From NCBI RefSeq assembly GCF_964204645.1, contig NC_134031.1, positions 11,472,088 to 11,536,087 of the forward strand: DNA of 64,000 nucleotides, given 5' to 3'. This stretch comes from Tubulanus polymorphus (Eukaryota; Animalia; Nemertea). Below the pieces are notes generated by a model. It saw nothing but the letters and a program-made list of their open reading frames with translations, was not told where the DNA came from and ran no database searches. The translations under genes and the position numbers were made by a program. Positions 33,741 to 64,000 of the stretch are shown piece after piece; positions within the stretch are counted from its first letter, which is position 1; every line of letters begins with the position of its first letter.

Positions 33741-33743
33741 GTT

Positions 33744-35343: not shown

Positions 35344-35354
35344 ATATAGGAAGG

Positions 35355-36074: not shown

Positions 36075-36076
36075 AG

Positions 36077-36535: not shown

Positions 36536-36536
36536 C

Positions 36537-37137: not shown

Positions 37138-37146
37138 CGTTAGAGT

Positions 37147-39391: not shown

Positions 39392-39464
39392 TTCTGACCA
39401 CGCAGAATCTATATCCACCTTGGTGAGTGAACCAGGACTCTCACGAGACGCGCTTCACCTGGTG

Positions 39465-40219: not shown

Positions 40220-40680
40220 AGTAATAGGGGTAATAGGCTTTCAAGCCAAAGGTCGAACGGTCGAGCTCGTAAAAAATGAAAAACATAAAAATAATTACAA
40301 TTTCTACTTGAATTACTCGCGAAACTCATAAAAATGAAAAATAAATTCTCACACGCTCGAATTTATTTTTCATTTTTATGATTTTCACTCCTAATTCAAG
40401 TAGAAATTGTAATTATTTTTATGTTTTTCATTTTTACTCACCCGCCCGTTCAACCTTTAGCTTGAAAGCCTATTACCCCTATTACTCTTAAAATATTCAT
40501 ATATATGAATAACATTTAAATCATTGAACTTCTAAAATCAATTTTAATAAAAAATATAGTATTAAAATGGAAGCAAATAAGTACTACTGCCCAACATGTA
40601 ATATCGATATAGATAAGTCCCAAAAAGCAAGACACAATAAAACTAAAACACATTTAGAGAATAAATTGAAACTAGAGTAT
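40220..40680. repeat. Mav-3 left TIR; 40220-40486 is an imperfect fold-back palindrome
   Basis: Essentially identical inverted copy at 58279-58739. Confidence 0.97.
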
Positions 40681-43600: not shown

Positions 43601-44596
43601 CATTATAGAATGTTGAAGTTTTATTTGAGACAAGGAATGATATTAAAAAAAGTACATAGATATATTTCATTCAGTCAATCTAAATGGTTAGAAAAATATA
43701 TAGATTTTGATACTACACAGAGAACTAAATCTAAAACTGATTTTGAAAAAGATTTTTTTAAGTTAATGAATAATGCATTCTATGGAAAAACTTGTGAAAA
43801 CATAAGAAATAGAAATGATATTGAGTTAGTTAGTAATGGTAAAAGGATAAGGTATTTACAATCATATCCTAAGTTTATAGGTAACAGAATATTTGATGAA
43901 AATTTAGCAGCAGTTAATATGAGAAGAACATCAATGAAATTTAATAAACCAATTTATGTTGGAGCTGCAGATTTAGAAATTTCAAAGCTATTGATGTATG
44001 AATTCTATTATAATGTATTACAACCTCATTTTGGAGAAAAACATATAGAAATCTTATATTTTGATACTGACAGTTACATATTAAAGATAAAAACTGATAA
44101 CATAACAGATGATTTAAAAACATTAAAACACCATTTTGATTTTAGTAATTATCCAAAAAATCATGAATTGTTTAGCAATGATAATAAAAAAGTTCCTGGG
44201 AAGTTTAAGGATGAATTAGGTGGTGAAGAAATGATAGAGTTCATTGGTATTAGATCTAAAATGTATTCATATAAAACTAAAGAACATGAAGCTAAAAAGT
44301 TAAAAGGAATAACCAAAAGCGTTGTTGAAAAGAATATTCATTTTAAAGATTACATCAATTGTATATTTAATGAAGAAGTTAGAAAACATAAGATGAAATG
44401 TTTAAGATCTGAAGATCATGAAATGTATATTGAAGAGATAGAGAAGATAAGTCTAAACCCATTTGATGATAAAAGATATATTTTAGATGATGGAATCCAC
44501 ACAGTCGCCTATGGTTGCAATTTAGATGAATATATAAAATTCAAAAGAGAAGAAACAAAAGAAAATGAGATTATGAAAAGGATTCTAGCGTGTTAA
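40567..44596 (+). CDS. pPolB: Mav-3 protein-primed DNA polymerase B with N-terminal C2H2 fingers and endonuclease VII-like insert; 4-bp deletion after 41046 splits it into ORFs 40567-41055 and 40997-44596
   Basis: YGDFES, FHNLSGYD, YLKSDV, YIDANNLYG, KLMNNAFYGK, YFDTDS; Mav-1 and Mav-4 read KGKTLEENKK through the break. Confidence 0.97.
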
Positions 44597-44624
44597 TCAA
44601 TTTCAATAAAAATTTGTATAATAA

Positions 44625-44966
44625 ATGGAGAGTAAACAAGTACACAGTGAATTCTTAGAAAGAATTAAAGATATAACAAATGTAAAATCTGTAGATTATA
44701 AATTCAAAAAGTTAACAGAATTAACAATCCATAAGAAATATCTAATTACAAATATTGTTACAGTTACTAATAACTATGGAGATAAATTAGTAATTCATTT
44801 AGAATATGAAGGATTAAAAGGAAATAAATATAAATTCAGAACTTATTTACCAGATAGATTTCATAGATTATCAAGTGAAGATCTAGAAGAATTATATTCT
44901 GGTGATTTCTATTTCATATATAAAGGTAAGAATGAAAAAGGGCACCATGAAATAGATTTCGAATAA
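44625..44966 (+). CDS. Hypothetical 113-aa protein (possible OB-fold)
   Basis: Intact ORF with TAAATG start; conserved in the Mav-1 TIR. Confidence 0.7.
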   Translation: MESKQVHSEFLERIKDITNVKSVDYKFKKLTELTIHKKYLITNIVTVTNNYGDKLVIHLEYEGLKGNKYKFRTYLPDRFHRLSSEDLEELYSGDFYFIYKGKNEKGHHEIDFE

Positions 44967-44983
44967 GAAAATATGTAAAATAA

Positions 44984-45739
44984 ATGGTAGAATTAAAAGA
45001 ATACAGAATATTTGTAGATTCTAGAAAACTTACAAATTATAAATCTCATAATTTACTAATACAATTAGATAGAGAATTCAAGAATTGTGTAGATTTAAAA
45101 TTAGTTAATATAAGTTTATGTAATTCTTTTCATAATATATCGAATAAAAGTCTTAATCATTTAGCTTTTAAAATTTATGTTAGAAATTTGAATAAATGGT
45201 TTCATCTTTATCTAAAACCAGGATTATATAATTTAGAAACATTAGCGCAAGAAATTAATAAAAGAGCTCGTTTAAAAATGGGCTCAGCTGCTCGATTTGA
45301 AATTAAATTCATCAAAAGTGATAGTTCGAATAAAATAAGAATAAAGTTAACTAATGAACAACATAGATTTCTAGTAAGAAAACCTTTAGCTAAACTGTTT
45401 GGAATTCTTCCGGATAGACATTATTCAAATATTGATACTTATACAAATATAATACCTTTTACACACTTTTATATTTATTGCAATCTAATCGATCCTACAA
45501 AAACATTTGAAGCAACTAAAGATACAACATGTAATTCTAGTATATTAAATATTTTACCATTAAAAAATGTTAAACAATTTGGAACGCAAATAAATTATAA
45601 TTTAGCTGAATGTGATTTCAAACCTTGTATTCCTCAATTTAATAATTTTAAATTAGAAATAAGAAATCATAATGGATACTTAATTGATTTGAATAACTTT
45701 CCTGTAATTTATGAATTAGTTATAAGATGTAAAGAGTAA
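44984..45739 (+). CDS. Mav-3 minor capsid (penton-like) protein
   Basis: VDSR, PGLYNLETL, LFG, YIYCNLI, EIRNHNG..IDLN pattern typical of Maverick mCP. Confidence 0.75.
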   Translation: MVELKEYRIFVDSRKLTNYKSHNLLIQLDREFKNCVDLKLVNISLCNSFHNISNKSLNHLAFKIYVRNLNKWFHLYLKPGLYNLETLAQEINKRARLKMGSAARFEIKFIKSDSSNKIRIKLTNEQHRFLVRKPLAKLFGILPDRHYSNIDTYTNIIPFTHFYIYCNLIDPTKTFEATKDTTCNSSILNILPLKNVKQFGTQINYNLAECDFKPCIPQFNNFKLEIRNHNGYLIDLNNFPVIYELVIRCKE

Positions 45740-45755
45740 TTTTTCACCTATATAA

Positions 45756-46115
45756 ATTAATATAACTGTTGGACCGAGTATATGTTTTGGATTTGATTTT
45801 AAACGTGAGAAAGAAATGAAATTTAACATGAATGATGTAATTACACACATCAAAAATATTGCATTTTCTAATGAAACAACATTTGAGTATGAAACAACAA
45901 TAAATATAGAAACTTTAAATGTAGAAAAGATTACTAATTTAATTAGAGAATCTTTAAGATTTTATGAATTAGATGAAGATTTTATCATATATGATATTAA
46001 AAACATATTAACCAAAATATATGATAATCATAAAACTAGTAATAAAATAAATGTTGAATTAATCATAAATAAGTTAACTAAATATTTTGATGATAGTAAT
46101 TTTTTTGATAAATAA
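45756..46115 (+). CDS. Hypothetical protein; ancestral ATG mutated (TAAATT), ORF now starts at 45816
   Basis: Mav-1 copy 23195-23527 begins TAAATG-NITVGPSICFGFDFK. Confidence 0.65.
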   Translation: MNITVGPSICFGFDFKREKEMKFNMNDVITHIKNIAFSNETTFEYETTINIETLNVEKITNLIRESLRFYELDEDFIIYDIKNILTKIYDNHKTSNKINVELIINKLTKYFDDSNFFDK

Positions 46116-46337
46116 ATGAGTGATAATAAGTGGATAATAACTGGATTATATAATGGCGCATTACTATCAGTTGGAACGGTTGGTTATTCAATGGTATTAA
46201 AAAAAGTATTCAAAATGGGAAGTGTTAATGTTGATAGATTTGATATAAATGATATTTTAAAGTTAACATTAGCAGTTACTTTATCTAATTTAACTATTGA
46301 TTATTTGGAAAAACAAAAATATATTCCTCCCATATAA
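46116..46337 (+). CDS. Small hydrophobic conserved protein (73 aa)
   Basis: Homologous to 33081-33320. Confidence 0.8.
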   Translation: MSDNKWIITGLYNGALLSVGTVGYSMVLKKVFKMGSVNVDRFDINDILKLTLAVTLSNLTIDYLEKQKYIPPI

Positions 46338-46361
46338 ATGCATAATTTTTTTGCTAAATAA

Positions 46362-46784
46362 ATGGCTTCTGCAATTATAACTATTATAGGATCGGCAATT
46401 GTTAACGCTTTAGCATTTACTGGTGGTGGATATTTATTTAAACATATTGATAAAAATAGTTCATTAGGAGAACAAAGAAGACATAACTTAGCGTTAGAGA
46501 AATACAATAAAGCTGCAGAAGAATATAGAGAAAAGAGGCAAAACTATATGGATTACATCAATAAAGAATTATATGATCAGAAGATTTCACATAGAGATTT
46601 TCAATCAGTTGATGATGCAATGAGTTTATATAACGCAGTAACAAATAAAGAAAAATTACATCTATACAAACCTAAATTATCAGATTATTATACCCCAAGT
46701 AAAGAACAACAGAAATATGAAATAATATGGATTTTAGGTGGAACTGTTATTGTTATATTTGTTGCTTATAAGTTTACTAATTAG
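46362..46784 (+). CDS. Conserved protein with hydrophobic ends (140 aa)
   Basis: Homologous to 33331-33740 and 22525-22940. Confidence 0.82.
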   Translation: MASAIITIIGSAIVNALAFTGGGYLFKHIDKNSSLGEQRRHNLALEKYNKAAEEYREKRQNYMDYINKELYDQKISHRDFQSVDDAMSLYNAVTNKEKLHLYKPKLSDYYTPSKEQQKYEIIWILGGTVIVIFVAYKFTN

Positions 46785-46803
46785 TAATTTTTATTCTAAA
46801 TAA

Positions 46804-47238
46804 ATGGAAGATAAAGTTGATAGTATTGATATTATTCATCATGATATAAATAAAACTAAATTAAAAACATATTTAGAAAAACAAATATTAGAATTTGAAA
46901 GTGACTTAAAGATAAAAAAGAAAAAATATTTAAAAAGTAAAATTATATATTATTTGATTATAAGTGGTTCGGTTACAATTAGTTCTGTAATAACATTTTT
47001 AGCAATATTCAGCCCATTAACACCTTTAGCTATGTCAATTGGTGTATTAGGATTAAGTTCAAGTGTTTTAACCGGTATAAGTTCAAAATTAAATATAAAA
47101 AGTATGAAAGAAAAAATAAAATCTAATATAAAAGAAATTAATAAATTAAAGAACACACTAGATTATATAATAAGTTTAAATGGTCATATAACAGTTGAAG
47201 AACAAGATAAATTATTAAAAGAATTAATAAATTATTAA
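46804..47238 (+). CDS. Hydrophobic-hairpin membrane protein (144 aa)
   Basis: KKKY followed by two hydrophobic segments. Confidence 0.8.
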   Translation: MEDKVDSIDIIHHDINKTKLKTYLEKQILEFESDLKIKKKKYLKSKIIYYLIISGSVTISSVITFLAIFSPLTPLAMSIGVLGLSSSVLTGISSKLNIKSMKEKIKSNIKEINKLKNTLDYIISLNGHITVEEQDKLLKELINY

Positions 47239-47255
47239 TTTTTTTAATTATATAA

Positions 47256-48647
47256 ATGGTAGATAGTTTTCCAAAAGCTTTCCAATATAATAAATCAATT
47301 AAATATAATATTCCAGCAATAGATTTTAATAAAGATATTACATATAGAAATGAAGTTTTAGATTCATTAACTAATTTAGAAATTTATGTTACTGAAACTA
47401 ATAATTTTAATGCAAAGATGGAAAATATATTTCATATATATTTAATTAATTTTAAAAAATTGAAAGATGAAAAACAATGGTTATTAAAATCTAATATGAA
47501 GTATTGGCAGATTCAATTAAATTTTGCTGTTTATTGTGCAACAACAGGATGTGGAATTAGTTGGAATGATCATTTGAATAATTCTAAATATAAATTAATT
47601 CAAAGTTTATTTAGATTTCATACATACTTTCAAATCAGAATAATATTAAATGAATTAGAGTGCGCTTTACCAGGATCTAGGTATTTCAAAGAATTAGATA
47701 ATAATATTAATTTATCTAAGTTTTATAAGATTTGCAATGAATTTAATATAGATATAAATAATTCTGATTTTAGAACAAAAATTGGAACAATAAGATCACT
47801 TCCATGCCCTAGAAAGATTGCAGAATATTGTGCACTTCCCATACCATCTAATAGTTTTTATAATATCTATAATAATAAATTAGGTTATGGTAAAATAGAA
47901 ACTAAGGATTTAGAAACATTAAATTTCAATAAATTGCCGAAATTTTATGATCATTTAAAACAAGAAAACAATAATGGTTGGGTTTATTTTATTTTAGAAA
48001 ATAGTGAAGGTTTTACTAAATCAGGTATAGAAAGAATAAATCAATCTATTAGAACTTATTTAATTTGTATTTTAGGTGCGCAAGTTGAAACAAGATCACC
48101 GATAATTGGAAATTTGAATACATCATTCGATACACAAAAACAGTTTAAAGTTTTATTTGAAGATTCCATACATAATGATAAAAATAGATCGATTCCAGAA
48201 AACATTATAAGATATCAAAATTATTTAGATAAATCTCATGTAAGACTTAATTATTGTATAGGCCCTAATCTATTAATTATTTCTAATGATTTAGTATTGA
48301 AGATGGGAAATATAATTGGTTATAATAATCTAATTAAAACTGCGACAATAAATAATTCATTTGGGTTAAATGATATAAATAAAAAGATTATCACTGCTCC
48401 AAAATTAATGGAAGGTGAAAAAAATAAAAAACATATTCAATCAACAGAAACTAAAACTAAGAATATTAAATTAAATAATGATTCTAAAATAAAAGATTAC
48501 AATACATCAGAAAATAATAGAACTGATATTATTCAACATGATATAATTAAACTAAATGATGATAATAAATCCCATGAAAATACTAAATTAGCTATAACTT
48601 GTATAGGAATTGTAATCGGAGGAATATTTAATTTTTTTATTATGTAA
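47256..48647 (+). CDS. Hypothetical 463-aa protein with C-terminal TM anchor
   Basis: Long intact ORF; decayed homologue at 20797-22061. Confidence 0.8.
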   Translation: MVDSFPKAFQYNKSIKYNIPAIDFNKDITYRNEVLDSLTNLEIYVTETNNFNAKMENIFHIYLINFKKLKDEKQWLLKSNMKYWQIQLNFAVYCATTGCGISWNDHLNNSKYKLIQSLFRFHTYFQIRIILNELECALPGSRYFKELDNNINLSKFYKICNEFNIDINNSDFRTKIGTIRSLPCPRKIAEYCALPIPSNSFYNIYNNKLGYGKIETKDLETLNFNKLPKFYDHLKQENNNGWVYFILENSEGFTKSGIERINQSIRTYLICILGAQVETRSPIIGNLNTSFDTQKQFKVLFEDSIHNDKNRSIPENIIRYQNYLDKSHVRLNYCIGPNLLIISNDLVLKMGNIIGYNNLIKTATINNSFGLNDINKKIITAPKLMEGEKNKKHIQSTETKTKNIKLNNDSKIKDYNTSENNRTDIIQHDIIKLNDDNKSHENTKLAITCIGIVIGGIFNFFIM

Positions 48648-50120
48648 ATGGATGTAGAAGGTGGAGAAGATTATGAAATGGGAGAAATGGGAAATAATAA
48701 TGAAGGATATATTGATGATGATTATAATGATGCAGAAACTAATATTGATAATGATGATGAATCAGCATATAATTCTAATTTAGCAGATAGTGGTTCTAAA
48801 GCCCCATCAACAGATGAATTTGATAGAAGAACTAGATCGAGAATAAATCCTGAAAATGAAAATCAAGGTTTATCAAGACAAAATTTAGAAAATATTGAAT
48901 TTATGTATGATTTTCAACGTGTATTTAAAGATTCTGGATATAATATAAATGCCAGAGGCGCCAGACTTTTAGTAAAAGAATTAAAATCTTTAGATGGTGA
49001 ATATTATTATCATTTGAAAGATGATTATTATATTGATATCTCTTATAAAAAAGGAGAAAAAATATTAGCAAAATCAACTTTGCTTAAGTCTGACTCATTA
49101 CTATCTAGAATTAAAAGAATAAGTAATAGTAATGAAATAGAAGATGTAACACAAGAAGAAATTATTAAAAATGAAAGAGTATTTAAACAAAGAATTAATA
49201 AATTATTTGAAACAATCAAAGATAATCCAGAAACAGAAACAACTTCTGAACAGAATATAACTTCCAAAACTAGTAAACTTAAATCAAACACTGAAGTTCA
49301 AACTGAAAAACTTTTACCGAATGGATTACTTGATGCAACAGATCAAGAAATAGAAGCTTTAAGTATGTTTTCTAAAAAAACAATTAGAGAAATAATAAGT
49401 ATACGAAATGATGCCGATAAAATTGCGCGCGAAAAACATATTAGATATAATAAAATTAAACCTTTAGAAAATAAATTATTTGACACCAGAAAAGAATTAG
49501 AACAATTAAAATTAGATAGAGAATTTAAAGTTATTGAAGAAATTGAATTTAAAAAAAGAAATGCATATTTAGAAAAAGAAATTGATGATTTAGAATATAA
49601 CATAGAATTTCAGAAAGAAAAAATGAAATTATTATTAAAATCATACGATTATTGTATCAATAGATTAAAAGTTGTTGTTAAAGAGTTAATACTAAAACCA
49701 AATTCTGACATATCACTAAAAGATAGAATAAAATTATTATTTAAGTTTGAAGGAATAACAGTTCTTTCAATTCTAACAGCTGTAACTATGTTATTTACAA
49801 CAATTGGTTTAGCAATATCAAATGCTTTAAAATCTACTCCTACTCCCACTCCCAATAAACCAGATAAACCTCCAGGCAATAATTCTATACAAGATAAAGT
49901 TAAAGATGGTTTAAAGAAATTAGCAAAATATTTATGGGAACTATCTAAAAAATCTGCTGCAGCATTGCCAGGAGTTATTGCATCAATTGTTGGTTTTATA
50001 TTGAAATCTGCAGGAAACATTATTAACTTTGCTGCTGAACATATTATTTTATTTTTAATTACAGTTGTAAGTGCTATTATTTTTGGTTTAGTAAATATGA
50101 TATCAAAAAATATCAAGTAA
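48648..50120 (+). CDS. Coiled-coil protein with hydrophobic C-terminus (candidate membrane-active virion protein)
   Basis: C-terminal third conserved in Mav-1 and Mav-2. Confidence 0.8.
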   Translation: MDVEGGEDYEMGEMGNNNEGYIDDDYNDAETNIDNDDESAYNSNLADSGSKAPSTDEFDRRTRSRINPENENQGLSRQNLENIEFMYDFQRVFKDSGYNINARGARLLVKELKSLDGEYYYHLKDDYYIDISYKKGEKILAKSTLLKSDSLLSRIKRISNSNEIEDVTQEEIIKNERVFKQRINKLFETIKDNPETETTSEQNITSKTSKLKSNTEVQTEKLLPNGLLDATDQEIEALSMFSKKTIREIISIRNDADKIAREKHIRYNKIKPLENKLFDTRKELEQLKLDREFKVIEEIEFKKRNAYLEKEIDDLEYNIEFQKEKMKLLLKSYDYCINRLKVVVKELILKPNSDISLKDRIKLLFKFEGITVLSILTAVTMLFTTIGLAISNALKSTPTPTPNKPDKPPGNNSIQDKVKDGLKKLAKYLWELSKKSAAALPGVIASIVGFILKSAGNIINFAAEHIILFLITVVSAIIFGLVNMISKNIK

Positions 50121-50160
50121 ACCATGATTAAAAATAAATAATTAATTTTTTGTTAAATAA

Positions 50161-51408
50161 ATGAGTGGGAGTTATATCAATCCTTCTAAGAATCATAGAA
50201 TATCTAATGCTATTAAAGCAGAAAGATCACATCATATAATTACTCATAACCCTTCAAATATTAATCCCGATGAAACTTTATACGTTAGAATCCCTCGATT
50301 AACACAAAATACTTTTTATGTTCCAAATAGTATTTATTTATCAGCCGATATAAAAGTAATCGGTAATAATAATAATTATGTCGTTGATAATGTTGGAAGA
50401 TATTTGATTAAAAAGTTAACAATAAAGATTGGTCCAGAAACAGTTTTCTCATTAGATGATTATAATTTATTTTCACATTATAAAGATTTATGGTTAACTA
50501 AAGAAAATAGAAATAATATGATATTTCAAGGAATTCAATCAGAAAACCAAAATAAATTAAGATCAGAAGCTAATAGCGCAATATTAACTAATGATGTAGA
50601 TAAATTGATAAAAAGTATATATGGAAGCAAATATAAAATTCCATTGGACTTTGAATTGATAAATAATAATGCACCTTTATATAAATACGCAATTCAAGAA
50701 GATATTATATTTGAGATAACATTTGCTCCTGTAAATGAAATTGTATTATCTAGCGTTAATAAAGATATGAGTTATAAATTATCGAATATATGTTTAGAAT
50801 ATGATACCGTAACTGATGAAAATATTTCAAGTATAATTCAAACTCAATACAATCAAGGGTTTTCATTATTATATGATTATATTGATAAATTTAAAACTGT
50901 AACTATTAATGCAAATGATGAAATAATTAATGAGAATATTAACTTTCCTAGAAGATCTATTAAAGGTATATTAATATTTTTTACCATTGGAACGTATACT
51001 AATGGCGCAATAAATGTTGATAATTATTATAATCCTGAAATAACAAAAGTAGAAATAACTATCGAAGGAATAGCAAATAAAATATTTTGTCAAGGAATGA
51101 GAATGATTGATCAATGGCCAGAAATTAGAAAACATTTTATGAATGAAAAAATAAAATCATCTGAAGATTGTAACATTAATCAAATTGATTATTATACCGG
51201 TAATAAATATGCATTATGGTTAGATTTTAGAACAACAGAGGATAATTCATTACATGGTTCTGGGAAAAAACTACAGAACACTAAAGATGGAATACAATTA
51301 TTCATGACAAAGAAAAAGGGAATCAAAAATTTTAAAATGCACATTTATATTATATCTGACGCGCAATTAAATATTGTAAATTCACAATTAGATAGTGTTA
51401 TGTATTAA
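50161..51408 (+). CDS. Mav-3 major capsid protein
   Basis: Intact 415 aa, strongly conserved with the GC-rich Mav-2 ORF; size and context of Maverick MCP. Confidence 0.87.
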   Translation: MSGSYINPSKNHRISNAIKAERSHHIITHNPSNINPDETLYVRIPRLTQNTFYVPNSIYLSADIKVIGNNNNYVVDNVGRYLIKKLTIKIGPETVFSLDDYNLFSHYKDLWLTKENRNNMIFQGIQSENQNKLRSEANSAILTNDVDKLIKSIYGSKYKIPLDFELINNNAPLYKYAIQEDIIFEITFAPVNEIVLSSVNKDMSYKLSNICLEYDTVTDENISSIIQTQYNQGFSLLYDYIDKFKTVTINANDEIINENINFPRRSIKGILIFFTIGTYTNGAINVDNYYNPEITKVEITIEGIANKIFCQGMRMIDQWPEIRKHFMNEKIKSSEDCNINQIDYYTGNKYALWLDFRTTEDNSLHGSGKKLQNTKDGIQLFMTKKKGIKNFKMHIYIISDAQLNIVNSQLDSVMY

Positions 51409-51440
51409 AATTTTAACTTTAATAAAAATTTATTATATAA

Positions 51441-52504
51441 ATGGAAGGAGGTAAAGTATATGAAAGAATCAAAGCTGATAAAGAAATCAATGATGATTTG
51501 TATTATGTAATACCTTATAAAAGAATAAATGAATATATTGGAACATTTTTATTAAATGAATTAAATCAATACAAAGAATATTTAATTGAACGTAATAATA
51601 ATATTGATATAAAAATAGAAGATAATATTGAAACAAAAATAGAAGATAATATTAAAACAAAAATAGATAATAATATTGAAACAAAAATAGAAGATAATGT
51701 TATACCTTCTACATCGAATGATGATAAGATTGAAACAAAAATAGAACATAATATTGAACCTAAAATAGAAAAATCAAATGTTCAACCAAAAGATAACATC
51801 AGATGTATGTATTGTGAAGAAGATTTTGATAATAATAATGATTATTTATTACACATAAAAAAAGATGAACATATTTTACAATTAGTAAAAACATATGCCA
51901 ATATATATAAAGATAAATGCAAAGAGGATCAGAATTATTGTGCCTTCTGTAATGAATGTATAACAAAGGCTAATTGGGCAAAACATTATAAATTAAAAAC
52001 AAAAGGTGGAAATGATTCAGCCCATGCAATACAAGTATTTAAATCTTGGTGTGAAAAATGTAAAGAATATGTAATATATGATAAACAATTGAATCATACT
52101 CAATTAAACATATTGGTACAGATAATGTAATAGAAAATCCAACAGTTATAAATCCAAAATTTAATAATAAGAATATATTAGATTATCGGTGGTATAGAAA
52201 AACATTTATAGATTATTTATTGAGTAATGATATAGTTACCATATTGAAAAAGTTAGATAACTTTAAACCAAATGTAACTTATGCAATGAACTTATTTGAA
52301 CTTAAATATGATGATTTTAGAGAATTTTTAAATAAACATCCATCTAAAACTGAAATCGAAAATTATATTCCAAAAATATTTTCAAGAAAAACATTCAATA
52401 AATATAAACTCGGGAATCATTCAGGAATTATATCAAAGAAAATGCAAAGGGATATATATTTAGAATACAATAAGCTTAAAGAAAAATATGAAAATGAAAA
52501 TTAA
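51441..52504 (+). pseudogene. Zinc-finger protein with IETKIEDN repeats; apparent 4-bp deletion near 52097 splits it into ORFs 51441-52130 and 52220-52504
   Basis: CMYC..H..H, CAFC, CEKC; frame upstream of 52220 is open back to KHIGTDNV; Mav-1 reads NHKYSI*HIGT. Confidence 0.7.
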
Positions 52505-52509
52505 AAAGA

Positions 52510-52874
52510 TTATAGAATTCACTGTATATTGATGGATGAATGGATGAGTTGGATGAGTTGGATGAGTGGAAGAGTGGAAGAGTGTAATAATATATATATT
52601 TTACTTTTTAACACATAAATTGGAAGAATAGTATGAGTATAAATATAATATTTATATTCTTTATTAAATTTAACACAATATATATATTATTAAAATAATA
52701 TTTAAATATAATATAAAATTGATAAAATAACTTCAAATCAAACTCTTACTGTTTTAAAAATAAAAAACATATGTAAATTATATATTATTACACTCATCCA
52801 TTCATCCACTCTTCCAATTCATCCAATTCATCCAATTCATCCACTCATCCATCAATATACAGTGAATTCTATAA
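52510..52874. repeat. Inverted repeat (~85-95-bp arms built of 9-bp TGGATGAGT-type units) between convergent gene blocks
   Basis: TATAGAATTCACTGTATATTGATGGATGA...GAGTGTAATAATATA versus its reverse complement at ~52780-52874. Confidence 0.9.
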
Positions 52875-52891
52875 TATTTTGAATTAGGATT

Positions 52892-53506
52892 TTATTTTAT
52901 AAATTTATATTCATATGGAAATTGTAATCTCATTAATAATTTTGAACCTTTATTATTCTTTAATTTATTCATATATTCATCATGTAATTCAGTAGGTATA
53001 ATTTGATTTTCTTCCAATGATTGTTGCATAGATTTTCTATCTTTGTTGTAGAATAAAACTAGAAATCTTATATTCTCTCTAAAATCTTTCACAATTGAAT
53101 TATATTTCTGATTTAAAACCCAAGTTGTTATCCCAAAATGTCTCCCAGAGAAAGCTAAATAACATAACTCACTTTCTCTAATTTTAGAATCATGTAAATT
53201 TGCGCAATCATCGATAATAAATAATGTATTAGATCCTTTATAAATATCTAATGCAATTTTTATACAATTATCTAAATTATCTTTCACTGTTTTAGAATTT
53301 AATATAATAAACTTTTTATCTTTAAAAACTATATCTCTATTATACGTTTTATTCATTTCATAAGTAGGACAGAATAATATTATATTATCAAAATGATTTT
53401 TATAAATAGTTTCTAATAAATATAATATGAAGTGTGTTTTACCACAATTTGTAACTCCAGTAACTAACATATTATGTGGTTCAAATATAAACAAATCTTT
53501 ATTCAT
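52892..53506 (-). CDS. Mav-3 A32/FtsK-like packaging ATPase
   Basis: GVTNCGKT, LFIIDD, SGRH. Confidence 0.96.
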   Translation of the reverse strand: MNKDLFIFEPHNMLVTGVTNCGKTHFILYLLETIYKNHFDNIILFCPTYEMNKTYNRDIVFKDKKFIILNSKTVKDNLDNCIKIALDIYKGSNTLFIIDDCANLHDSKIRESELCYLAFSGRHFGITTWVLNQKYNSIVKDFRENIRFLVLFYNKDRKSMQQSLEENQIIPTELHDEYMNKLKNNKGSKLLMRLQFPYEYKFIK

Positions 53507-54599
53507 TTATTCTTTTAATTTTACTAGATAAAATCCATTCATTAAATTTATCATCATATCCTTTATATTTCACCAAAGAATACTTTTTTCCTTTAAGAGT
53601 TTTTGTTTTCAATACTTTTTCTATTTTGTATTCTATTTCATCTGGATTTGGTACAAGTGATAATTCTTGTTCATAGAAATAACCTAATATTTCTTCATCT
53701 TTTAAATTTTCTAATTTATAAACAAATGGTTTAGTTAATATTATCTTTTTAATCTTGAATATTTCTTCAGTAAAATTGGGGGTATAACCTTTATAAAATG
53801 TTTTTCGATATTTAGAAATTCTAACATGTTGTCCTATTTTAAATTTCGGTTCTCCAAAATCATGTGTAACAAATGCTCCATATAAATTATTCCAAACTAT
53901 TTCTGAATTTTCTTCTTTTCTAGCTTGTATAGGTTTCATATTTATAGAACTATGTTTAGAATTATTATAACCTTTAACTAAATCATCTAACATATTTATA
54001 GACTCATCGATATATTTATATGTTTCATTAGCGGTGAAATATTTCCACATTCTAGTTTTCAATGTTTTATTAAATCTTTCTATAACAGATGCTTTTTTAT
54101 CTGAATGTGTTGAAAAATATTCTACATCGTTATCAGTTAATAGTTTTTTAAAATGTTTGTTATAAAATTCTTTACCTTCATCAAATTGTATTTTATCTGG
54201 GATAGCTTCTTTAAATATTAATTTGAAAGAATTTGTAACTTCTATACCAGTTTTATTTTTAATCGGGATACTCCATGCGTATCTACTGAATATATCTATA
54301 ACATTTAGTATCCAAAAATATCCTTTGTTATATTCTTCTAAGTTCTTCATGTCAATTAAATCTGCTTGCCATTGTTGATCGATATATGAAACCATTACTT
54401 TTCTTGTTAAATATTTTTTATCCATCTTTTTATGAATTTGATATGTGGGTTGATTTTTTAACCATGATTTTAATTCACTATATTTTATTTTTTCTTTATC
54501 AGATTTAATTTTATCCCATAATTCCGAAACACTTGAATATGAAACTTCACTTTCTGGGTTATAATATAAATCTCTTAAATATTGTTCTTTTTTCATCAT
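53499..54599 (-). CDS. Mav-3 retroviral-type (DDE) integrase with C-terminal chromodomain
   Basis: WQADLIDM, IQFDEGKEF, IERFNKTLK; YKIEKVL...VKYKGYDDKFNEWI. Confidence 0.97.
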   Translation of the reverse strand: MMKKEQYLRDLYYNPESEVSYSSVSELWDKIKSDKEKIKYSELKSWLKNQPTYQIHKKMDKKYLTRKVMVSYIDQQWQADLIDMKNLEEYNKGYFWILNVIDIFSRYAWSIPIKNKTGIEVTNSFKLIFKEAIPDKIQFDEGKEFYNKHFKKLLTDNDVEYFSTHSDKKASVIERFNKTLKTRMWKYFTANETYKYIDESINMLDDLVKGYNNSKHSSINMKPIQARKEENSEIVWNNLYGAFVTHDFGEPKFKIGQHVRISKYRKTFYKGYTPNFTEEIFKIKKIILTKPFVYKLENLKDEEILGYFYEQELSLVPNPDEIEYKIEKVLKTKTLKGKKYSLVKYKGYDDKFNEWILSSKIKRINE

Positions 54600-54602
54600 A
54601 TT

Positions 54603-54971
54603 TTAATCCATTAATAATATTTTAGATTTATTTTCATTTGATTTATGATTTGACTTATTTTCGGGTATGATAGGTTTATCATCATTGGAATCATCTTTAT
54701 CATCAGATTTGAATTTTGATTTATATATTACACCGGAGAATATAATAATTGTGATTAACCCAATTGTAATATATAAGTAATTATTTCTTCCACTATTAGA
54801 AGAATCAGATGGATTATTATTTGAATTAATATCAGATAATTTCTGTGATTCATTTATATCAGTTAATTTCTTTTTCTTAGCTTTTTTTAATTCTGATGAT
54901 CTTTTACCTAATTCTCTTGCCCATTTAATTTGTTTCTCGGATCTAGCCTTTTTCTCAACGCTATCACTCAT
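54603..54971 (-). CDS. Small basic single-TM protein (122 aa)
   Basis: Homologues in Mav-1 and Mav-2. Confidence 0.8.
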   Translation of the reverse strand: MSDSVEKKARSEKQIKWARELGKRSSELKKAKKKKLTDINESQKLSDINSNNNPSDSSNSGRNNYLYITIGLITIIIFSGVIYKSKFKSDDKDDSNDDKPIIPENKSNHKSNENKSKILLMD

Positions 54972-55566
54972 TTATTTTAGTTAATTTTTGTTCTGATTCA
55001 TTTTCTGTTTCGCGGTTTGGTTGTAGTACATCTGTTTCGTTCTTACCTGATTTATATTCCATAGGTTTGATGTTCGAAAATGTTATGACGCCAGTAGAAA
55101 TTAATGTCATAACCGATCCTAATTGAAATGAAGCATAACCGACCCATTTTTGTAATTCAGTCATAACTAAGTAGTCATTTTTCAAATCACTATATAATTT
55201 ATTTTCATCATCAATTGGTATTAACTGGTTACATAATTTTGAATAACATTTGACAATACCATTCGAAATAGAATCATTTATTCTAGCTAATCTTGACTCT
55301 TCATAAATCTTAAAATATTTGATTACTTTATCTGGTTTCATAGCATCTAGTTCTTGAAAAGTAATGATTCTATTTAAAAACTCCTTAGATTTCCCGCCAG
55401 CAATTAATAATTCAAGATGATGCTTACAATATAAATAGTATTCATAATCTATATTGTTATTAACTTGAATAGAATTAGAAACAACTGTATCTTTATTATC
55501 ACTAATACCTAAATCATCTAATGTCTTTTCAATATCAATATTATTCTTACTCGATTTCTTTGACAT
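54964..55566 (-). CDS. Conserved Maverick protein (200 aa)
   Basis: Homologues in Mav-1 and Mav-2. Confidence 0.8.
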   Translation of the reverse strand: MSKKSSKNNIDIEKTLDDLGISDNKDTVVSNSIQVNNNIDYEYYLYCKHHLELLIAGGKSKEFLNRIITFQELDAMKPDKVIKYFKIYEESRLARINDSISNGIVKCYSKLCNQLIPIDDENKLYSDLKNDYLVMTELQKWVGYASFQLGSVMTLISTGVITFSNIKPMEYKSGKNETDVLQPNRETENESEQKLTKINE

Positions 55567-55977
55567 TTATATTAGAGGAAAAAAGCAAAAAAAATATTAT
55601 AAGTATTCTTCAAATGATACTAGTATCTCTTTAGGTTAATACTAAATTGACTAGGTTAGTTAAAGTTAAAGAATTTCTATTCAAATCTATTCAAAATCTA
55701 TTCAATCTAATGTCAATTAGAATTACCAAAAGAAAATATTGAAAATATAATAGAATTCACTAGCTAGTTGAAGTTATTGTTTTTTTATTATATTTTATTT
55801 AAATTAGGATTTAATATCTCACTACTATTGTCTATCTATTAGGAGCAGTAATTATAACTGTCCAGATAAGTCATTTCGGATCCTCGATAATAAATCCTCA
55901 AACTGAAAATAAATTCAAAGAAACGACTGGTGGAAATATTATTTCATAAACACATATATTTATTATACAAATTTTAG

Positions 55978-56178
55978 CGATCAATAATAGAACAATGGAG
56001 AACAATAGAAATGCGGTCCAATCGGACCGGTTATTGCGCAATACACAGTTAACAGTAAACAATCAATACGGAGCAACCGCCGCCATTAACAACGATCAAT
56101 AATAGAACAATGGAGAACAATAGAAATGCGGTCCAATCGGACCGGTTATTGCGCAATACACAGTTAACAGTAAACAAT
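55978..56178. repeat. Direct repeat of an ~86-bp unit (period 115) rich in metazoan TF-site consensus sequences
   Basis: Copies at 55978-56063 and 56093-56178. Confidence 0.9.
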
Positions 56179-56249
56179 ACAATATTAAAACAGATATATA
56201 CAATCGAGATTACATTTTTGATATCTAAGACCTCCTTCAGTATTATGAT

Positions 56250-56978
56250 TTATAATTTTGTCCAGAATTCTTTAATTACTGGATTGTTTCCAATCATTTC
56301 TTCAATTTCTGGTAAATGTCTTACTACTTCACTAAATGCTAATCCTAATATTTTGAATTTTTCATATTTTATTAATCTACCTACTCTTCTCAGTTTTCTT
56401 TCAAAACCGGCACTGATATCTATGTTCTTTTTAACCCACAGTCCCCAAGAAATCCCCTCAGTTTCTTTATCAAACATTGAAAACCCTATATTTAGATAAC
56501 CCCCGAAAATGATGTGGTCCCATAGGTGATTTGCTTTTCTATTTAATATGGTTTTATAACTTTTTTTTAAGATATCAGTAATTTCAGCAAATGAAATAAC
56601 TTCTACACTTTGTATTTCCGGAAAGTTTAAATGTTCTGTGTCAATGATTAATTTAGATTTTAAAAACTCGTTCAACTCTTCTCCACTCATTTTCTTAGTT
56701 TTCGATTCTTTGAGCCCCAACAGCAATTTGAGTCGCGTTGCTGGTAATTTTGGTAATTGTAGTTCGCGCGGTAATTGTTTATTATATATTACATCACTCA
56801 GAATTTTCACCATTTCTTGATGATAGTCCAAATGTTCTTGTAATTTTTGTGAAGTTTGTTCGTCAATTACGAGAGTTTCATCCACCATTTCTATTGATTC
56901 CTGAGTTTCACTATCCAGTAGCAATCGTTCCTCATCCGTTGGTTGGCTTAGAATTTCTGGTTGATCTTTGTGTTCCAT
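56250..56978 (-). CDS. Hypothetical 242-aa protein preceded by a predicted 5'-UTR intron (57072-56985)
   Basis: Intact ORF, less AT-rich than neighbours; GTAAGT...TTTTAG ends 6 nt before the ATG. Confidence 0.75.
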   Translation of the reverse strand: MEHKDQPEILSQPTDEERLLLDSETQESIEMVDETLVIDEQTSQKLQEHLDYHQEMVKILSDVIYNKQLPRELQLPKLPATRLKLLLGLKESKTKKMSGEELNEFLKSKLIIDTEHLNFPEIQSVEVISFAEITDILKKSYKTILNRKANHLWDHIIFGGYLNIGFSMFDKETEGISWGLWVKKNIDISAGFERKLRRVGRLIKYEKFKILGLAFSEVVRHLPEIEEMIGNNPVIKEFWTKL

Positions 56979-57399
56979 TTTAATCTAAAAGATATCGTGA
57001 AAATGAATTACTGTACTTTAATATGTTTAAAGGTTTCCCTACTTCATAATAACTACAAAAAACGGTACTTACATTTAGATTTAGAACTGTAAACTGTGTT
57101 TTGAGAGAGAATATCCAATACGTACTATGTATGTGAAAGTTGATTTCTAACTGCCGACGTGGCGCACGTTCGACCAAACTAATTACTTCTGCATGTTTGC
57201 CTGGATTGTAACAGATGTTCCTTTGTGATGTAATTGATTAATCCTTTTCAACTGAAATAGCACATTCGATCAATATTCAAATGAGGTGCGCCCCATTCAA
57301 CTGAATATGAAATACGGCACAGATGTTTTTGTAAACAACCTAATACAATTAAATATAGGCGGTTTGACATAGATCGAGAGTAACCGGTTTTCTAAGCAC

Positions 57400-58050
57400 T
57401 TAAGCTTCAACGTATTTTTCATTATGTGTTGAATTCCATAATTCAACAAATGTCTTTGCTTTATCCAGTTTATCTAAATATAACTGTATATCTAGTTTAT
57501 TAGATTTAATTATATTTTCTTTCTTTTCAAGAGGCCTTAAATTTCTCCAACCCCAAATAAGTTTTTTATTGTATTCATCATTCATGTCAAATTTAGAAAT
57601 CGGCAACACATGATCAATATGAAAGTATTCACCATAATTATCTATATTCATTTTATCGTCGAATTGATATATTATCCATGATTTTAAGAATTCATCTGAA
57701 CAACCCAATAAATTAGATAGTGTTTTTGAATGCGTTTCTTTGTTGAATAATTGTGTTAATCTAGATCTTAAACACTGTTTCAATCTAAAATTAAGATCTG
57801 TTTGATATCTTTCTCTCATATATTCTGCCATATAATAATTATAATGTTCTATATTATCTTCTCGGTATTGTTTGGTGTATAGTTTAAAACAAGTTTTACA
57901 GCAATATTGAAAACCATCTTTGCTAATCTTACGCTTACTAAATTCTGTTAATGATTTATCTAATTCACATTTAGAACACTTCTTGTAGTATATGTTTATA
58001 ACGCCAGTGTTATTTGTAATATTGATAATTTGTGGTTGTTCTGGTTCCAT
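57400..58050 (-). CDS. Zinc-ribbon plus HNH endonuclease-like protein
   Basis: CSKC...CKTC; HIDHVLPIS...NLRPL...EN. Confidence 0.8.
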   Translation of the reverse strand: MEPEQPQIINITNNTGVINIYYKKCSKCELDKSLTEFSKRKISKDGFQYCCKTCFKLYTKQYREDNIEHYNYYMAEYMRERYQTDLNFRLKQCLRSRLTQLFNKETHSKTLSNLLGCSDEFLKSWIIYQFDDKMNIDNYGEYFHIDHVLPISKFDMNDEYNKKLIWGWRNLRPLEKKENIIKSNKLDIQLYLDKLDKAKTFVELWNSTHNEKYVEA

Positions 58051-58140
58051 TTATTATACGTATTTTTTTACTAAATTGGTTAATAATTTTAGAATCCTCT
58101 TCCATTTCTTCGACCAACGTCATCTTCATTTTCGTCTTTT

Positions 58141-58392
58141 TCATTCCTCGCTGCTTTTGATAAGTTGTTTCGATTCCTTGATATCAAATTCCTCAACGTA
58201 TTGTTCATTATTTGGATCATTATTCCATAATTCAATAAATTTCTTTGCTTTTGTTAACTGTTCTGAATATAACTGTAAATATTCTAGTTTCAATTTATTC
58301 TCTAAATGTGTTTTAGTTTTATTGTGTCTTGCTTTTTGGGACTTATCTATATCGATATTACATGTTGGGCAGTAGTACTTATTTGCTTCCAT
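58141..58392 (-). pseudogene. Chimeric ORF: TIR copy of the pPolB N-terminal finger plus a remnant resembling the HNH protein C-terminus
   Basis: First 38 aa identical to 40567 ORF; QLYSEQLTKAKKFIELWN resembles QLYLDKLDKAKTFVELWN. Confidence 0.7.
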
Positions 58393-58739
58393 TTTAATAC
58401 TATATTTTTTATTAAAATTGATTTTAGAAGTTCAATGATTTAAATGTTATTCATATATATGAATATTTTAAGAGTAATAGGGGTAATAGGCTTTCAAGCT
58501 AAAGGTTGAACGGGCGGGTGAGTAAAAATGAAAAACATAAAAATAATTACAATTTCTACTTGAATTAGGAGTGAAAATCATAAAAATGAAAAATAAATTC
58601 GAGCGTGTGAGAATTTATTTTTCATTTTTATGAGTTTCGCGAGTAATTCAAGTAGAAATTGTAATTATTTTTATGTTTTTCATTTTTTACGAGCTCGACC
58701 GTTCGACCTTTGGCTTGAAAGCCTATTACCCCTATTACT
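58279..58739. repeat. Mav-3 right TIR
   Basis: Inverted copy of 40220-40680. Confidence 0.97.
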
Positions 58740-58745
58740 AGCCGG

Positions 58746-61018: not shown

Positions 61019-63096
61019 TTGGTTAGCGGTGCTTGTCACTCTCGAATACTTGTTATATACTCACAAACTTAAGTGATGAAGGGTGGACAAAGACACCTGG
61101 CCAACGCGATACGAAAGAAGCAGAAAAACGAGAAATTCCGTAGACGTTTTAGCGGGATGAAGTCGAGTGTGTTCAAGATGGCTCCCGTGTATTCACATTT
61201 ACGTTCAATGGAATGTTGTTCGCGCAAGCAGTATGATGCAAATACATTACTGTTCCGTTTCTATATTAACTGTGGAGAAAAGACTCCGATATAGTAACCG
61301 TAGTACTATAGCGTCTATGAATAGCGAGCAAGTATCAGCTGAACATGAATGCGTTTTGCCGTACTAACGACGTAGCAGTACGCGCTGCGAGGAATTGCGA
61401 TGGATGACGTCATTCGTCCGTCCATGACGTACCTTGTTGTGGCTGGTAGCTATTGCGTCACTTCGCGGTGAATTTCAAACTCAAACTGTGTACTGTTTTG
61501 TGCTTGACTTTTTCATTGTTTAGTGTGCGGAGACAGCGGTCTCAATGTACTTTTTTCCGATTGGGTATCCTGAACTTTAATACGCGTTGTTGTGATTGAA
61601 CTTTAAACATTTACTCGTATAGCATGAATTGTGTCATTTATTGATGTTCTTTTTCAGGATCTGTCTAGGGAGGTTTCAGCGTGATTTATATGAGTTAGTC
61701 TAAATTCAAAATTTCGGGACGAAATATAAGCTGGATGGGGAGTGATGATCCGCAGCAAGATTTCGTAGGAGCTAAAAAATGTTTGTAATGTTGATTTCCT
61801 GAATGCGTTGGTGGTTATTAATGGTTTCAGACAACAAACGTAGTAAGATGTAGTAAGCAGGTTGTTGTTTGATGCTTTGATCTATCAGCGCTGACCATAA
61901 ATCAGCCTAGTGTAAAAATAATTCTTTCTCGGTTCTTCTGCTGCGATATCTGGCAAACATTCAGAAATCTTTTAATAAACTTAAGAATAGACGGAACCGT
62001 ATTTGGTCGGAACAATGGGTTGCATTAGTTATGCGGCTGGTGGAAATGCGGCTGAGTGAGTAAATCATTCCGCGTCATGACAGGAGGGTTTGAAGGAAAA
62101 AGTTAGTTCAGCAAATCAGTTTTGAAAATAATTTTAGATCAGCGAATCATTAAGGCTAAAATCTATATGACCAAAACAGTCATGACAGTAAGGTTGCTGC
62201 TCCTTGCCAAAAGTCGAGTGGGAGAGTCGGTATTTTAAGAATGCCGATTCCTTCTATAAAAGGGACCCGCATCTTGAGAGAGCAGACACTCGGTAGACAC
62301 TCAAAAGACACTCGTAGATACTTGTTAAAAGCTGGTTTGGGACTTGATTCAGGACGGGTTACCAACAGGAGAGTGCAATAGGAATTTAGAGCTAGGATTT
62401 GGATTGTGTTAAACTGGAGAGCTGTGTTTAAATATTAAGGTAAATAAATTCATCTTGTATTGTTATATCCATTCAAAATTTCCGGTATTCTAGTTTTACT
62501 TGGGTTTGTGCGCGGACACGTTCTCTCGCCAGGGACCGATTATCGCTTATATTATTATACGACTAAGGAGAGGATTGTGACCGGCGTATCAATAGACTGA
62601 ATTAGAGTTTAGGCTAGTCCTGACCAAATCCTATCCATGTTATAATTGCACCAGTTATAGTAACGTCACTGTAGGGCAGACGAGAGGGAAAAAGTTGTGT
62701 TTGTAGTACATAGGCATGGTAGGCTTGTCGTACTTACTTAATACTTAAAACGGTGTTGTTACCTGTACGTGACTGTACGGTAATTTCTACAGGTTAGCCG
62801 TATGTGAGTATGTTGACGCTCAGACTTGCAATATTGGGATTCGAAACCAAACGAAAAAAAATCCAGTTGTAGTCAAGCGATTTACCCACTGTGCCACAGA
62901 ACGTAACTGCAGGGTGGATGAAATTTGATTTACGAATAGCCTAGCCTCACCTAACCCAAACTCTATTCTTTCACGCATGCGCGTTTGCAGATTATAGGAA
63001 CTCACGTACGGTTAACCTGTGGATATCACCGTACAGTCACATACGGGTAACAACTTCGTACTTAAAAAATGGTATTGGCTACTAAGAACTCACGTC

Positions 63097-63474
63097 AAAC
63101 GTCTTCGCTATTCTATGCTATTCTTGCTATTCTACTCTCCTAAAAGAACAAAGAATAGCATGCTTTTCTTGCTATTCTTGCTATTCTACAAAACCTTACG
63201 ATAGCATAGAATAGCAAACGTCTTCGCTATTCTATGCTATTCTTGCTATTCTATTCTCCTAAAAGAACAAAGAATAGCATGCTTTTCTTGCTATTCTTGC
63301 TATTCTACAAAACCCTTACGATAGCATAGGATAGCAAACGTCTTCGCTATTCTATGCTATTCTTGCTATTCTAATCTCCTAAAAGAACAAAGAATAGCAT
63401 GCTTTTCTTGCTATTGTTGCTATTCTACAAAACCTTAAGATAGCATAGGATAGCAAACGTCTTCGCTATTCTAT
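63097..63474. repeat. ~120-bp tandem repeat, 3+ copies, built from GCTATTCT/AGAATAGC motifs
   Basis: Unit starting AAACGTCTTCGCTATTCTATGC recurs at ~63097, 63216, 63336, 63455. Confidence 0.93.
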
Positions 63475-63479
63475 AGTTA

Positions 63480-64000
63480 GTGTCAGGGTATAAGGTTATA
63501 AGGTTAGGGTTTAGGTTAAGGGTTATAAGGTTAGGGTTTAGGCCTATAGGATTTATATTAGGGTTAGGGTTTAGGGGGTTTGGGTTAAGAGGGTTAAGGT
63601 TTAGAGGGATAAGGTTGAGGGGGTTAGGGTTAAGGGATTATGGTTTAGGGGGTTATGGTTCAGAGGGTTAGGGTTTAGGAGGGTTAGGGTTTAGGGGGTT
63701 AGGGTTTACAGGGTTAGGGTTAAGGGGGTTACGGTTTAGGGTGTTTAGATAGTAAGGATTTAGAGAGTTAAGTGTCTATTCAGTTAGGGTTTAGGGTTTC
63801 GGGGGTTAGGGTTTATAGTTATTTTCGTTCACTATTATTATTAGTGTCTAGAAGATTAGGGTTTATAGGGTTAGGGTTTAGGTGGTTAGGGTTTAGAGAG
63901 TTAGGGTTTAGAGACTTAAGTGTCTATTTAGTTAGGGGTTTCGAGGGTTAGTGTTTCGAGGGTTATGCTTTCAAGGGTTAGGGTTTATAGTGTTAAGGAT
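63480..64000 (+). repeat. Degenerate telomere-like TTAGGG/TTTAGGG repeats
   Basis: Many GGGTTAGGGTTTA units, G-rich on the + strand, running to the window end. Confidence 0.8.

Follow-up and report, generated by a model that had tools for sequence, protein, structure and literature searches.

What keeps integrated animal Mavericks quiet, and what wakes them, is an open question. Here we address it at a locus of the nemertean Tubulanus polymorphus. The window, by which we mean the whole stretch of 64,000 nucleotides (nt) analysed (RefSeq assembly GCF_964204645.1, contig NC_134031.1, positions 11,472,088 to 11,536,087 of the forward strand), holds a cluster of Maverick-type elements and ends in telomere-like TTAGGG repeats. 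Our subject is a variable slot common to two of these elements: Mav-3, which is AT-rich and full-length (40220-58739), and Mav-1, from a sister subfamily that is 82-90% alike, with a different gene order and insertions. Mav-3 has the terminal inverted repeats (461 nt, 40220-40680 and 58279-58739, 99.8% alike) and the target-site duplication (6 nt, 40214-40219 and 58740-58745) of a Maverick/Polinton. It encodes a retroviral-type integrase with a chromo domain (Pfam PF00665, E 1e-8) and the A32-like packaging ATPase of Mavericks (PF04665, E 1e-11). A 1174-residue open reading frame (ORF) for a putative family B polymerase, PolB, contains an endonuclease VII (EndoVII) insert and the motifs D-x-N-x-LY and YxDTDS, which we take to be those of protein-primed family B polymerases; this ORF matched no polymerase profile and no PDB entry. 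In this copy a frameshift near 41050 breaks the polymerase-like gene in two.

The slot of Mav-3 (55965-57342) lies between terminal repeat and integrase, and that of Mav-1, after rearrangement, between PolB and integrase. Read along the minus strand, the Mav-3 cassette consists of a non-coding leader (57073-57342; putative promoter and exon 1), a predicted 88-nt intron in the 5' untranslated region (UTR; 56985-57072), an intact ORF of 242 amino acids (aa; 56250-56978), a content-specific 3' UTR (55965-56249) and a 3' block (55475-55969) that starts at an AATAAA and runs into a 200-aa gene beginning at TAAATG. A 92-nt duplication within the 3' UTR (56184-56093 and 56068-55978) bears a 6-bp G+C hairpin in each copy. 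The Mav-1 cassette, on the plus strand, has a leader (12490-12770) whose 5' end is joined at 12475/12490 to a PolB lacking its C-terminal end, a predicted 125-nt intron that is likely spliced (12771-12895), a content (12904-13189) with an 8-bp G+C hairpin (13145-13163) and a 3' block (13190-13661).

Leaders and 3' blocks are clearly shared. The leaders align at 73% over 349 columns (12513-12841 on the plus strand against 57342-57000 on the minus strand, E 8e-40) and the 3' blocks at 79% over 509 columns (13190-13661 against 55969-55475, E 1e-125). Two copies of GTAAGTACCG, and no more, are present in the window; they mark the two predicted donors, +12771 and -57072. Both predicted introns run from GTAAGT to TTTTAG, with AG ends at 12895 and 56985, and stop 8 nt (Mav-1, ATG 12904) and 6 nt (Mav-3, ATG 56978) before a start codon; of the four GTAAGT in Mav-3, this is the one with an acceptor and an ATG downstream. 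The AATAAA lies at 13195-13200 in Mav-1 and 55964-55959 in Mav-3. Neither strand of the leaders has an ATG-frame above 29 codons, and a coding role of the 3' block is ruled out, its longest ATG-frames being 13 codons or less. The Mav-3 slot also stands out by its G+C content (0.32-0.40, against 0.19-0.28 in other Mav-3 ORFs). These alignments confirm what a first, sequence-only reading of this DNA had claimed: a shared leader and 5'-UTR intron ending 6-8 nt before an ATG, shared sequence from the AATAAA on, and unrelated contents in between.

Between the fixed flanks the contents of Mav-1 and Mav-3 are very probably not homologous. Their best local DNA score is 24, against 20.6±2.4 in shuffles, and 39 of 300 shuffles reach 24. 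To see the slot in other copies, contigs from four sequencing runs (X1, X3 and X4 from one sample, X2 from another) were compared over 12400-13360. Loose contig ends join unlike sequences to the 3' block at 13199 (119 letters, X1) and at 13271 (X2, X4), so at least three slot contents exist. The Mav-1 content had been described as short and degenerate. Its frame from the ATG does stop after 13 codons in this copy; yet many variant contigs cover this content in all four runs, and it is therefore a multi-copy type and not what decay has left of a single copy. With X put in place of four stops, the frame has no homologue among the proteins of 51-165 aa searched. The 15 variant places listed are spread equally over the codon positions (5/5/5), and one-base insertions occur among the X4 contigs. 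Judged from its letters, this content could be a non-coding RNA or decayed sequence, or could encode a short peptide ahead of a long 3' UTR. In other copies three base pairs of its hairpin are changed at both partners with pairing preserved (variant phase being taken from matching depths); the innermost base pair of the hairpin is no longer formed. Palindromes can also be repaired by template switching in the absence of selection, and the pairing could have arisen in this way.

One of the four runs suggests that the slot is transcribed while PolB is nearly silent. In X4 the depth over PolB is 31-33 and over the far-upstream leader 11-20, and it reaches 570-1370 across most of the slot content, giving a slot/PolB ratio of 28.6, against 0.035-0.34 in X1-X3. 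Ranked over 30 depth bins, X4 correlates poorly with the other runs (Spearman 0.11-0.41), which correlate well among themselves (0.72-0.92). Within 13215-13221, 15-21 nt past the AATAAA, X4 cover drops from 418 to 82, at a place where X1-X3 rise. RNA is the simplest reading of this profile. No run recorded as RNA is listed for 55900-57400, the Mav-3 cassette, of whose sampled words X4 contains 0.47. For Mav-3-type cargo there are 8 RefSeq gene models on 7 contigs, seven of which start at the same methionine; RefSeq models of such genes need transcript support when an annotated homologue is absent. Activity in the integrated state, as the sequence-only reading proposed, is thus likely.

The same run points to splicing. 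X4 record 27 (225 nt, depth 240) starts exactly 30 nt ahead of the donor, runs through an intron of 165 nt and stops exactly 30 nt beyond the acceptor, the intron being longer in the related copies seen in X4 than the 125 nt of the window's Mav-1. The next X4 contig starts at the first base after the AG, at depth 568; therefore a second path enters there. With 31-letter words, from which these assemblies were presumably built, this geometry is likely the shape of a bubble formed by a spliced and an unspliced path at both predicted sites. Under a uniform-end model the chance of contig ends at both sites is ~0.003. Splicing and 3'-end formation at the predicted sites are in our judgement probable, a statement that covers Mav-1-type copies in one run.

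Several points count against the transcription reading. The X4 run is of a kind not on record, i.e. not recorded as RNA, and comes from one sample. Its contigs derive from relatives ~90% alike and not from this locus, all of them Mav-1-type copies. Contigs, as opposed to reads, cannot show RNA level, strand, start or end, and their depth cannot rank genes. No contig joining 12770-12896 or 57073-56984 is listed in any run; a junction contig would have only 11 letters past the joint in common with the window, below what is needed for a listing. The AATAAA is common here (2.5-4.4 per kb) and occurs twice more inside the Mav-3 ORF.

The slot had also been proposed to stand apart from a TAAATG program. 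TAAATG resembles poxvirus late promoters, and 12 of the 16 Mav-3 ORFs start within it; the motif is unmentioned in the parts consulted of the entomopoxvirus-PLV papers checked for it. The slot ORF starts outside TAAATG, as do the PolB and integrase genes, and the PolB start shares its TAAAATG context with the cargo ORF. A relative of the slot protein in another Maverick (L006) does start at TAAATG, with no intron seen there, and the proposed separation therefore holds only in part. The idea of two programs thus rests on X4 and not on motifs.

The 242-aa protein of Mav-3 has an acidic, disordered N-terminus (residues 1-36) and a conserved helical domain (40-240), and contains no cysteine. Residues 1-45 include 14 D/E and 3 K/R, and residues 184-210, the predicted recognition region, 9 K/R and 3 D/E. 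It belongs to no family in Pfam, PHROG or NCBIfam and matches no PDB sequence. Structure prediction, which the sequence-only reading had suggested, gave a confident model (pLDDT 87.8; 94.4 for the C-terminal half). Among the top nine structural neighbours found with VIA, seven are DNA-binding domains of ParB, KorB, SopB, VirB or Spo0J, placed over residues 150-242. The top Atlas match for the C-terminal half is DUF3102 (0.94, 176 features), and three DUF3102 proteins are among the BFVD rows (E 0.65-2.4). We consider it probable, on the strength of the model, that the C-terminal part is a ParB/KorB/DUF3102-like helix-turn-helix that binds DNA. What sets the protein apart from ParB is the lack of a sequence-level match and of the ParB CTPase domain, as well as extra N-terminal helices and the acidic tail; the likeness to ParB/KorB/SopB/VirB domains and DUF3102 concerns the predicted fold of residues ~150-242.

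This assignment has to be weighed against three results. The fold match is weak, with VIA Z scores of 4.0-4.8 that lie below the tool's caution line and root-mean-square deviations of 2.7-4.1 over 69-82 residues. Foldseek searches of the PDB with both models gave no match at E<=0.001, the matches having E>1. The DUF3102 profile (PF11300) is absent from the protein and was found in 2 of 134 relatives, the best at E 0.007, short of a profile-level assignment.

The protein is part of a widespread family. There are 199 relatives at E<=1e-3 among 50%-identity representatives, and most of those listed are 22-35% identical over residues 40-240. The nearest are T. polymorphus RefSeq models (64-92% identity), the close relatives found all being from Tubulanus; the others range over 20-35%, and some adjoin Maverick core genes. 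Of 40 metagenome stretches tested, 23 loci were obtained. In L012 the gene follows a PolB that is 35% identical to that of Mav-3; in L006 it is preceded by genes for an integrase and an A32 ATPase and by a PLA2-like gene; and in L015 a short PolB-like remnant lies upstream. In a quick tree (63 rows of ~180, row L002_x disregarded) these three Maverick-linked members fall in three separate parts. The link to Mavericks is weakened by the finding that core genes are present in only two of the six related contigs above 4 kb; 17 of the 23 contigs are shorter than 2.3 kb. No relatives were found in viral_contigs or in prokaryotic genomes, and none of the 10 clusters looked up contains a named cellular gene, apart from a Tubulanus model. 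None of 10 window proteins occurs as an exact sequence in the protein collection searched. As a side observation, five related loci (L001, L002 (538), L003, L009 and L013) carry a donor-like motif (G|GTAAGT or G|GTAGG) whose distance to the downstream ATG is exactly 26 nt; three of the five retain the AG that lies 8 nt ahead of the ATG. The two sites would leave an intron of 18 nt, which is too small, so the coding frame in those loci may be part of an intron that is alternatively spliced.

Taken together, we favour the following explanation, and give it as a whole an even chance. A shared leader and 3' block would enclose unrelated contents in this Maverick family; the slot unit would be transcribed by host RNA polymerase II, spliced and polyadenylated from integrated copies, with PolB almost silent; and the Mav-3 content, a predicted helix-turn-helix protein, would control the element's own genes as an immediate-early switch. 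That the protein regulates these genes is the least secure step, and we hold it to be slightly less probable than its opposite. A regulator is nonetheless the favoured identity of the cargo because the family to which it belongs is widespread, is in part linked to Mavericks and has a predicted helix-turn-helix; of the roles offered by the sequence-only reading (latency regulator, antiviral effector or toxin), the latter two are without support. Between the two modes of regulation we distinctly favour an activator over a repressor, since the N-terminus is acidic and disordered and all annotated host copies are truncated, as if intact copies were costly. A repressor useful to the host should have stayed intact in expressed copies, and the annotated ones are not intact. 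Immediate-early genes of nuclear DNA viruses include adenovirus E1A and baculovirus ie0/ie1. The slot resembles them as a putative spliced, host-polymerase-driven regulator near the genome end and ahead of a separate viral program; the proposed analogy is one of function, not of sequence or fold.

Both leaders contain candidate binding sites for the slot protein. Two TTCAGTTGAA near-palindromes lie 49 nt apart in the Mav-3 leader (57305-57296 and 57256-57247), and TTCAGTTGAA occurs at 12548 and 12597 in the Mav-1 leader. None of 5000 shuffles reproduced the repeat, for a motif chosen after the fact. A point against this role is that the repeated motif was not seen upstream of any of the 11 relatives checked; the looser TTC-N3/4-GAA is present in 3. 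A reading of TTCAGTTGAA as a STAT-type site was not retained, for the window contains 28 copies of TTC-N4-GAA and the shuffle-tested motif had been chosen afterwards. The leaders further share an upstream frame of 8 codons (12558-12584 and 57294-57268), which sits inside a hairpin whose loop differs between the copies. A search of Rfam gave chance-level matches only.

The rival explanation that survives best accepts promoter, intron and poly(A) signal as real and takes the transcription for a neutral leftover of decaying copies, with nothing in it for latency or reactivation. We consider it unlikely. Its strength is the state of the copies. None of the 8 T. polymorphus RefSeq models is full length, and only two keep the KLRR helix; an in-frame 261-nt deletion with 3-nt microhomology (56419-56679) is found both in a contig joint of X1 and in XP_074661823. 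The truncation of the models also counts against a present function. Decay is also indicated by the truncated and interrupted Mav-1 PolB, the Mav-1 slot frame with its stop after 13 codons and evenly spread variant places, and the frameshift in the Mav-3 polymerase gene. The Mav-3 ORF, on the other hand, is intact and keeps the near-invariant residues of the family; 5 of the 9 listed variant places in it are at third codon positions, which is a matter of small numbers, and the Mav-1-type hairpin keeps its pairing.

Alternatively, there may have been no true swap, and the Mav-1 content may derive from the same helix-turn-helix gene, strongly diverged or shortened. HHalign does set 45 columns of the X-read Mav-1 frame on the C-terminal domain of the family (probability 0.13%, E 0.45), and the sequence of this Mav-1 copy departs from that of its sisters at numerous positions, by which a signal would be blurred. 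We nevertheless regard this as improbable: besides the shuffle-level DNA score, the family HMM gives -2.9 bits on the Mav-1 content, a value reached by 60 of 500 shuffles, no match appears among window fragments at E<10, and the flanks, 84-87% alike, are too close for such divergence of the contents without exchange. The sequence-only reading had itself named a deleted version of the same gene as the outcome that would undo it, and apart from this weak alignment that outcome finds no support.

Equally improbable is that the splice reading is wrong, the motif being a TAAATG start followed by a stop and the X4 bubble a product of genomic variants. The donor does overlap TAAATG in both copies, with TAA directly after it, a point that counts against an intron; the intron's first 70 nt are conserved like the flanks (0.84). 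To these can be added the unlisted junction contig and two X1 contigs that also start at 12896, which a variant 30 nt further on could explain. Genomic variants would not so readily account for a single X4 contig ending at both predicted sites with depth rising past the acceptor, for the X2 and X3 contigs that pass through the donor unbroken, or for the rarity of a GTAAGT followed by acceptor and ATG. Splicing thus stands as likely at the predicted sites, together with a 3' end after the AATAAA, from contig geometry and not from a listed junction.

How were the contents exchanged? Ordinary homologous recombination between subfamilies through the conserved flanks seems to us the better account, and a reasonably probable one. 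It suffices because the 3' junctions are scattered over three places (13190, 13199 and 13271) and not at one base, and because the Maverick family is shuffled elsewhere too. Mav-1 and Mav-3 have their central blocks in opposite orientations, and several module ends are marked by short promoter-like repeats (50-57 nt, ~80% alike). A dedicated exchange, whether gene conversion started by the EndoVII-like gene or an integron-like cassette exchange at the 3' hairpins, is quite improbable. In its favour, an EndoVII/HNH ORF adjoins the Mav-3 cassette and is missing there in Mav-1, both contents bear a short G+C hairpin 30-50 nt before the AATAAA, and the common sequence apparently extends to the ATG on one side and to the AATAAA on the other. 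An integron-like system would combine a dedicated recombinase with one fixed site, and this combination was not found: no tyrosine or serine recombinase is present among the 32 window ORFs scanned, the rve integrase being the sole recombinase found, and the junctions differ. The two hairpins have no sequence in common, palindrome repair needs no selection, and the whole element is shuffled at the promoter-like repeats. The claim of interchangeable cargo therefore stands as to fixed flanks and different contents, and a dedicated or programmed swapping mechanism is unsupported.

Variable cargo is known from nematode Mavericks, which, according to the part of the text consulted, have a cargo region of 2-5 kb between terminal repeat and integrase, with high G+C content, low conservation and introns, varying between elements; the cargo is interpreted as host-derived proteases or kinases, and the modularity is ascribed to recombination between Mavericks (Widen et al., 10.1101/2022.07.12.499685). 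As far as that part goes, the Mav-3 slot resembles this region in its position between terminal repeat and integrase, higher G+C content, low conservation and different cargo in related elements. It differs in its size (~1.4 kb), in that leader, intron and 3' block stay fixed while ORF and 3' UTR change, in that its sole predicted intron lies in the 5' UTR and in its cargo, a Maverick-linked predicted DNA-binding protein. A fixed expression frame is not described in the portion of the nematode text seen. That the content is a host-derived cargo gene or toxin, like the WASP proteases and KRMA kinases of nematode Mavericks, is very improbable in spite of this common anatomy, for no enzyme or toxin fold or family was found for the protein, its relatives adjoin Maverick core genes in other hosts, and the clusters looked up name no cellular gene.

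Other systems, each judged from part of the source cited, share fewer features. Vertebrate Mavericks have accessory regions, and their intact elements lack introns (PMC8097293); variable accessory ORFs flank core modules there as here, while an intron is predicted only here. The accessory "oncoid" genes of adintoviruses, likewise among variable ORFs flanking core modules, are defined by Rb-binding and CXXC motifs, in contrast to the cysteine-free 242-aa protein (PMC8502044). Integrated mavirus-like virophages have a promoter motif shared by their genes, are usually silent with some genes transcribed, and need giant-virus late transcription (PMC10945749). The integrated, usually silent state with some transcription is similar; a helper virus is not in evidence here, and a host-spliced unit does not figure in what we saw of the virophage account. 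Elements of dinoflagellates contain introners (PMC11957031). Mosaicism, homing endonucleases and HNH-bearing PolB are treated in 10.64898/2026.10.13.758929, PMC12220804 and PMC10748475, the portions seen of which do not cover the slot. Across the titles and abstract openings searched there was no fixed spliced slot and no helix-turn-helix regulator in Mavericks; supplements and subscription journals lay outside and may name the family. Intron-bearing variable cargo regions are thus already known from nematodes, and the part that the literature search did not return is the frame of promoter, intron and poly(A) signal together with the regulator.

This extends the nematode-type cargo region to a spiralian host, in a form in which the expression signals stay and the gene changes. 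The slot offers a testable candidate for the control of quiescence: a small host-spliced unit apparently read while PolB is not, and an unnamed, widespread family of predicted DNA-binding proteins. A bolder proposal, which we think unlikely, is that a dedicated host-polymerase slot of promoter, 5'-UTR intron and poly(A) signal is the main part read during integration and that subfamilies load it with alternative switches. One subfamily would carry a ParB-like factor binding the twin palindromes of its own promoter, and another a hairpin-bearing non-coding RNA or micro-peptide. If true, the slot would be a latency and reactivation control locus of Mavericks. Should the protein prove not to be a regulator, what is left is a variable accessory locus of the ordinary kind that has an intron in its 5' UTR.

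The run contigs gave two further observations. A segment of 50 nt (13271-13320) is nearly identical in Mav-1 and Mav-3 and has the highest X4 depth, ~1070 per contig; the X4 contigs place another sequence upstream of it, which may be a third slot content that is strongly read. X2 depth is 70-180 times that of X1 on core and terminal-repeat sequence (12400-12465 and 58302-58428) and 2-15 times on the Mav-1 slot content. One possible cause is a difference in subfamily copy number from one individual to another, and a second is the presence of free copies, contig depth being a poor measure of either.

Elsewhere in Mav-3, a free-standing EndoVII/HNH-like ORF of 216 aa (57400-58050, minus strand; PHROG 1035, E 1e-17) lies between the cassette and the right terminal repeat and has no DNA match in Mav-1. 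The 415-490-aa capsid and protease candidates belong to no Pfam or PHROG family, and the one searched against the PDB had no match. No relatives of the integrase or of the neighbouring 200-aa protein were found in viral_contigs. In Mav-1, an 8-kb insertion with tandem repeats (2200-10220) splits PolB, and a MITE-like insertion of 360 nt with 44-nt inverted ends (13661-14020) interrupts the 200-aa gene. Terminal-repeat content differs between the two elements (1-133, 24299-24863, 44595-44985 and 58046-58426): the repeats of Mav-1 apparently include a 113-aa gene and those of Mav-3 the start of the PolB gene. The promoter-like repeats at module ends may mediate inversions. A second, G+C-rich Maverick-like element (27772-40019, ~50% G+C, 555-nt inverted repeats) carries an A32 ATPase, a weak VLTF3-like match and an inserted reverse transcriptase, and adjoins a DUF1759 (Pao-type) ORF. 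At 63096-64000, tandem repeats of 119-120 nt are followed by degenerate TTAGGG arrays, and the Maverick cluster is therefore apparently subtelomeric.

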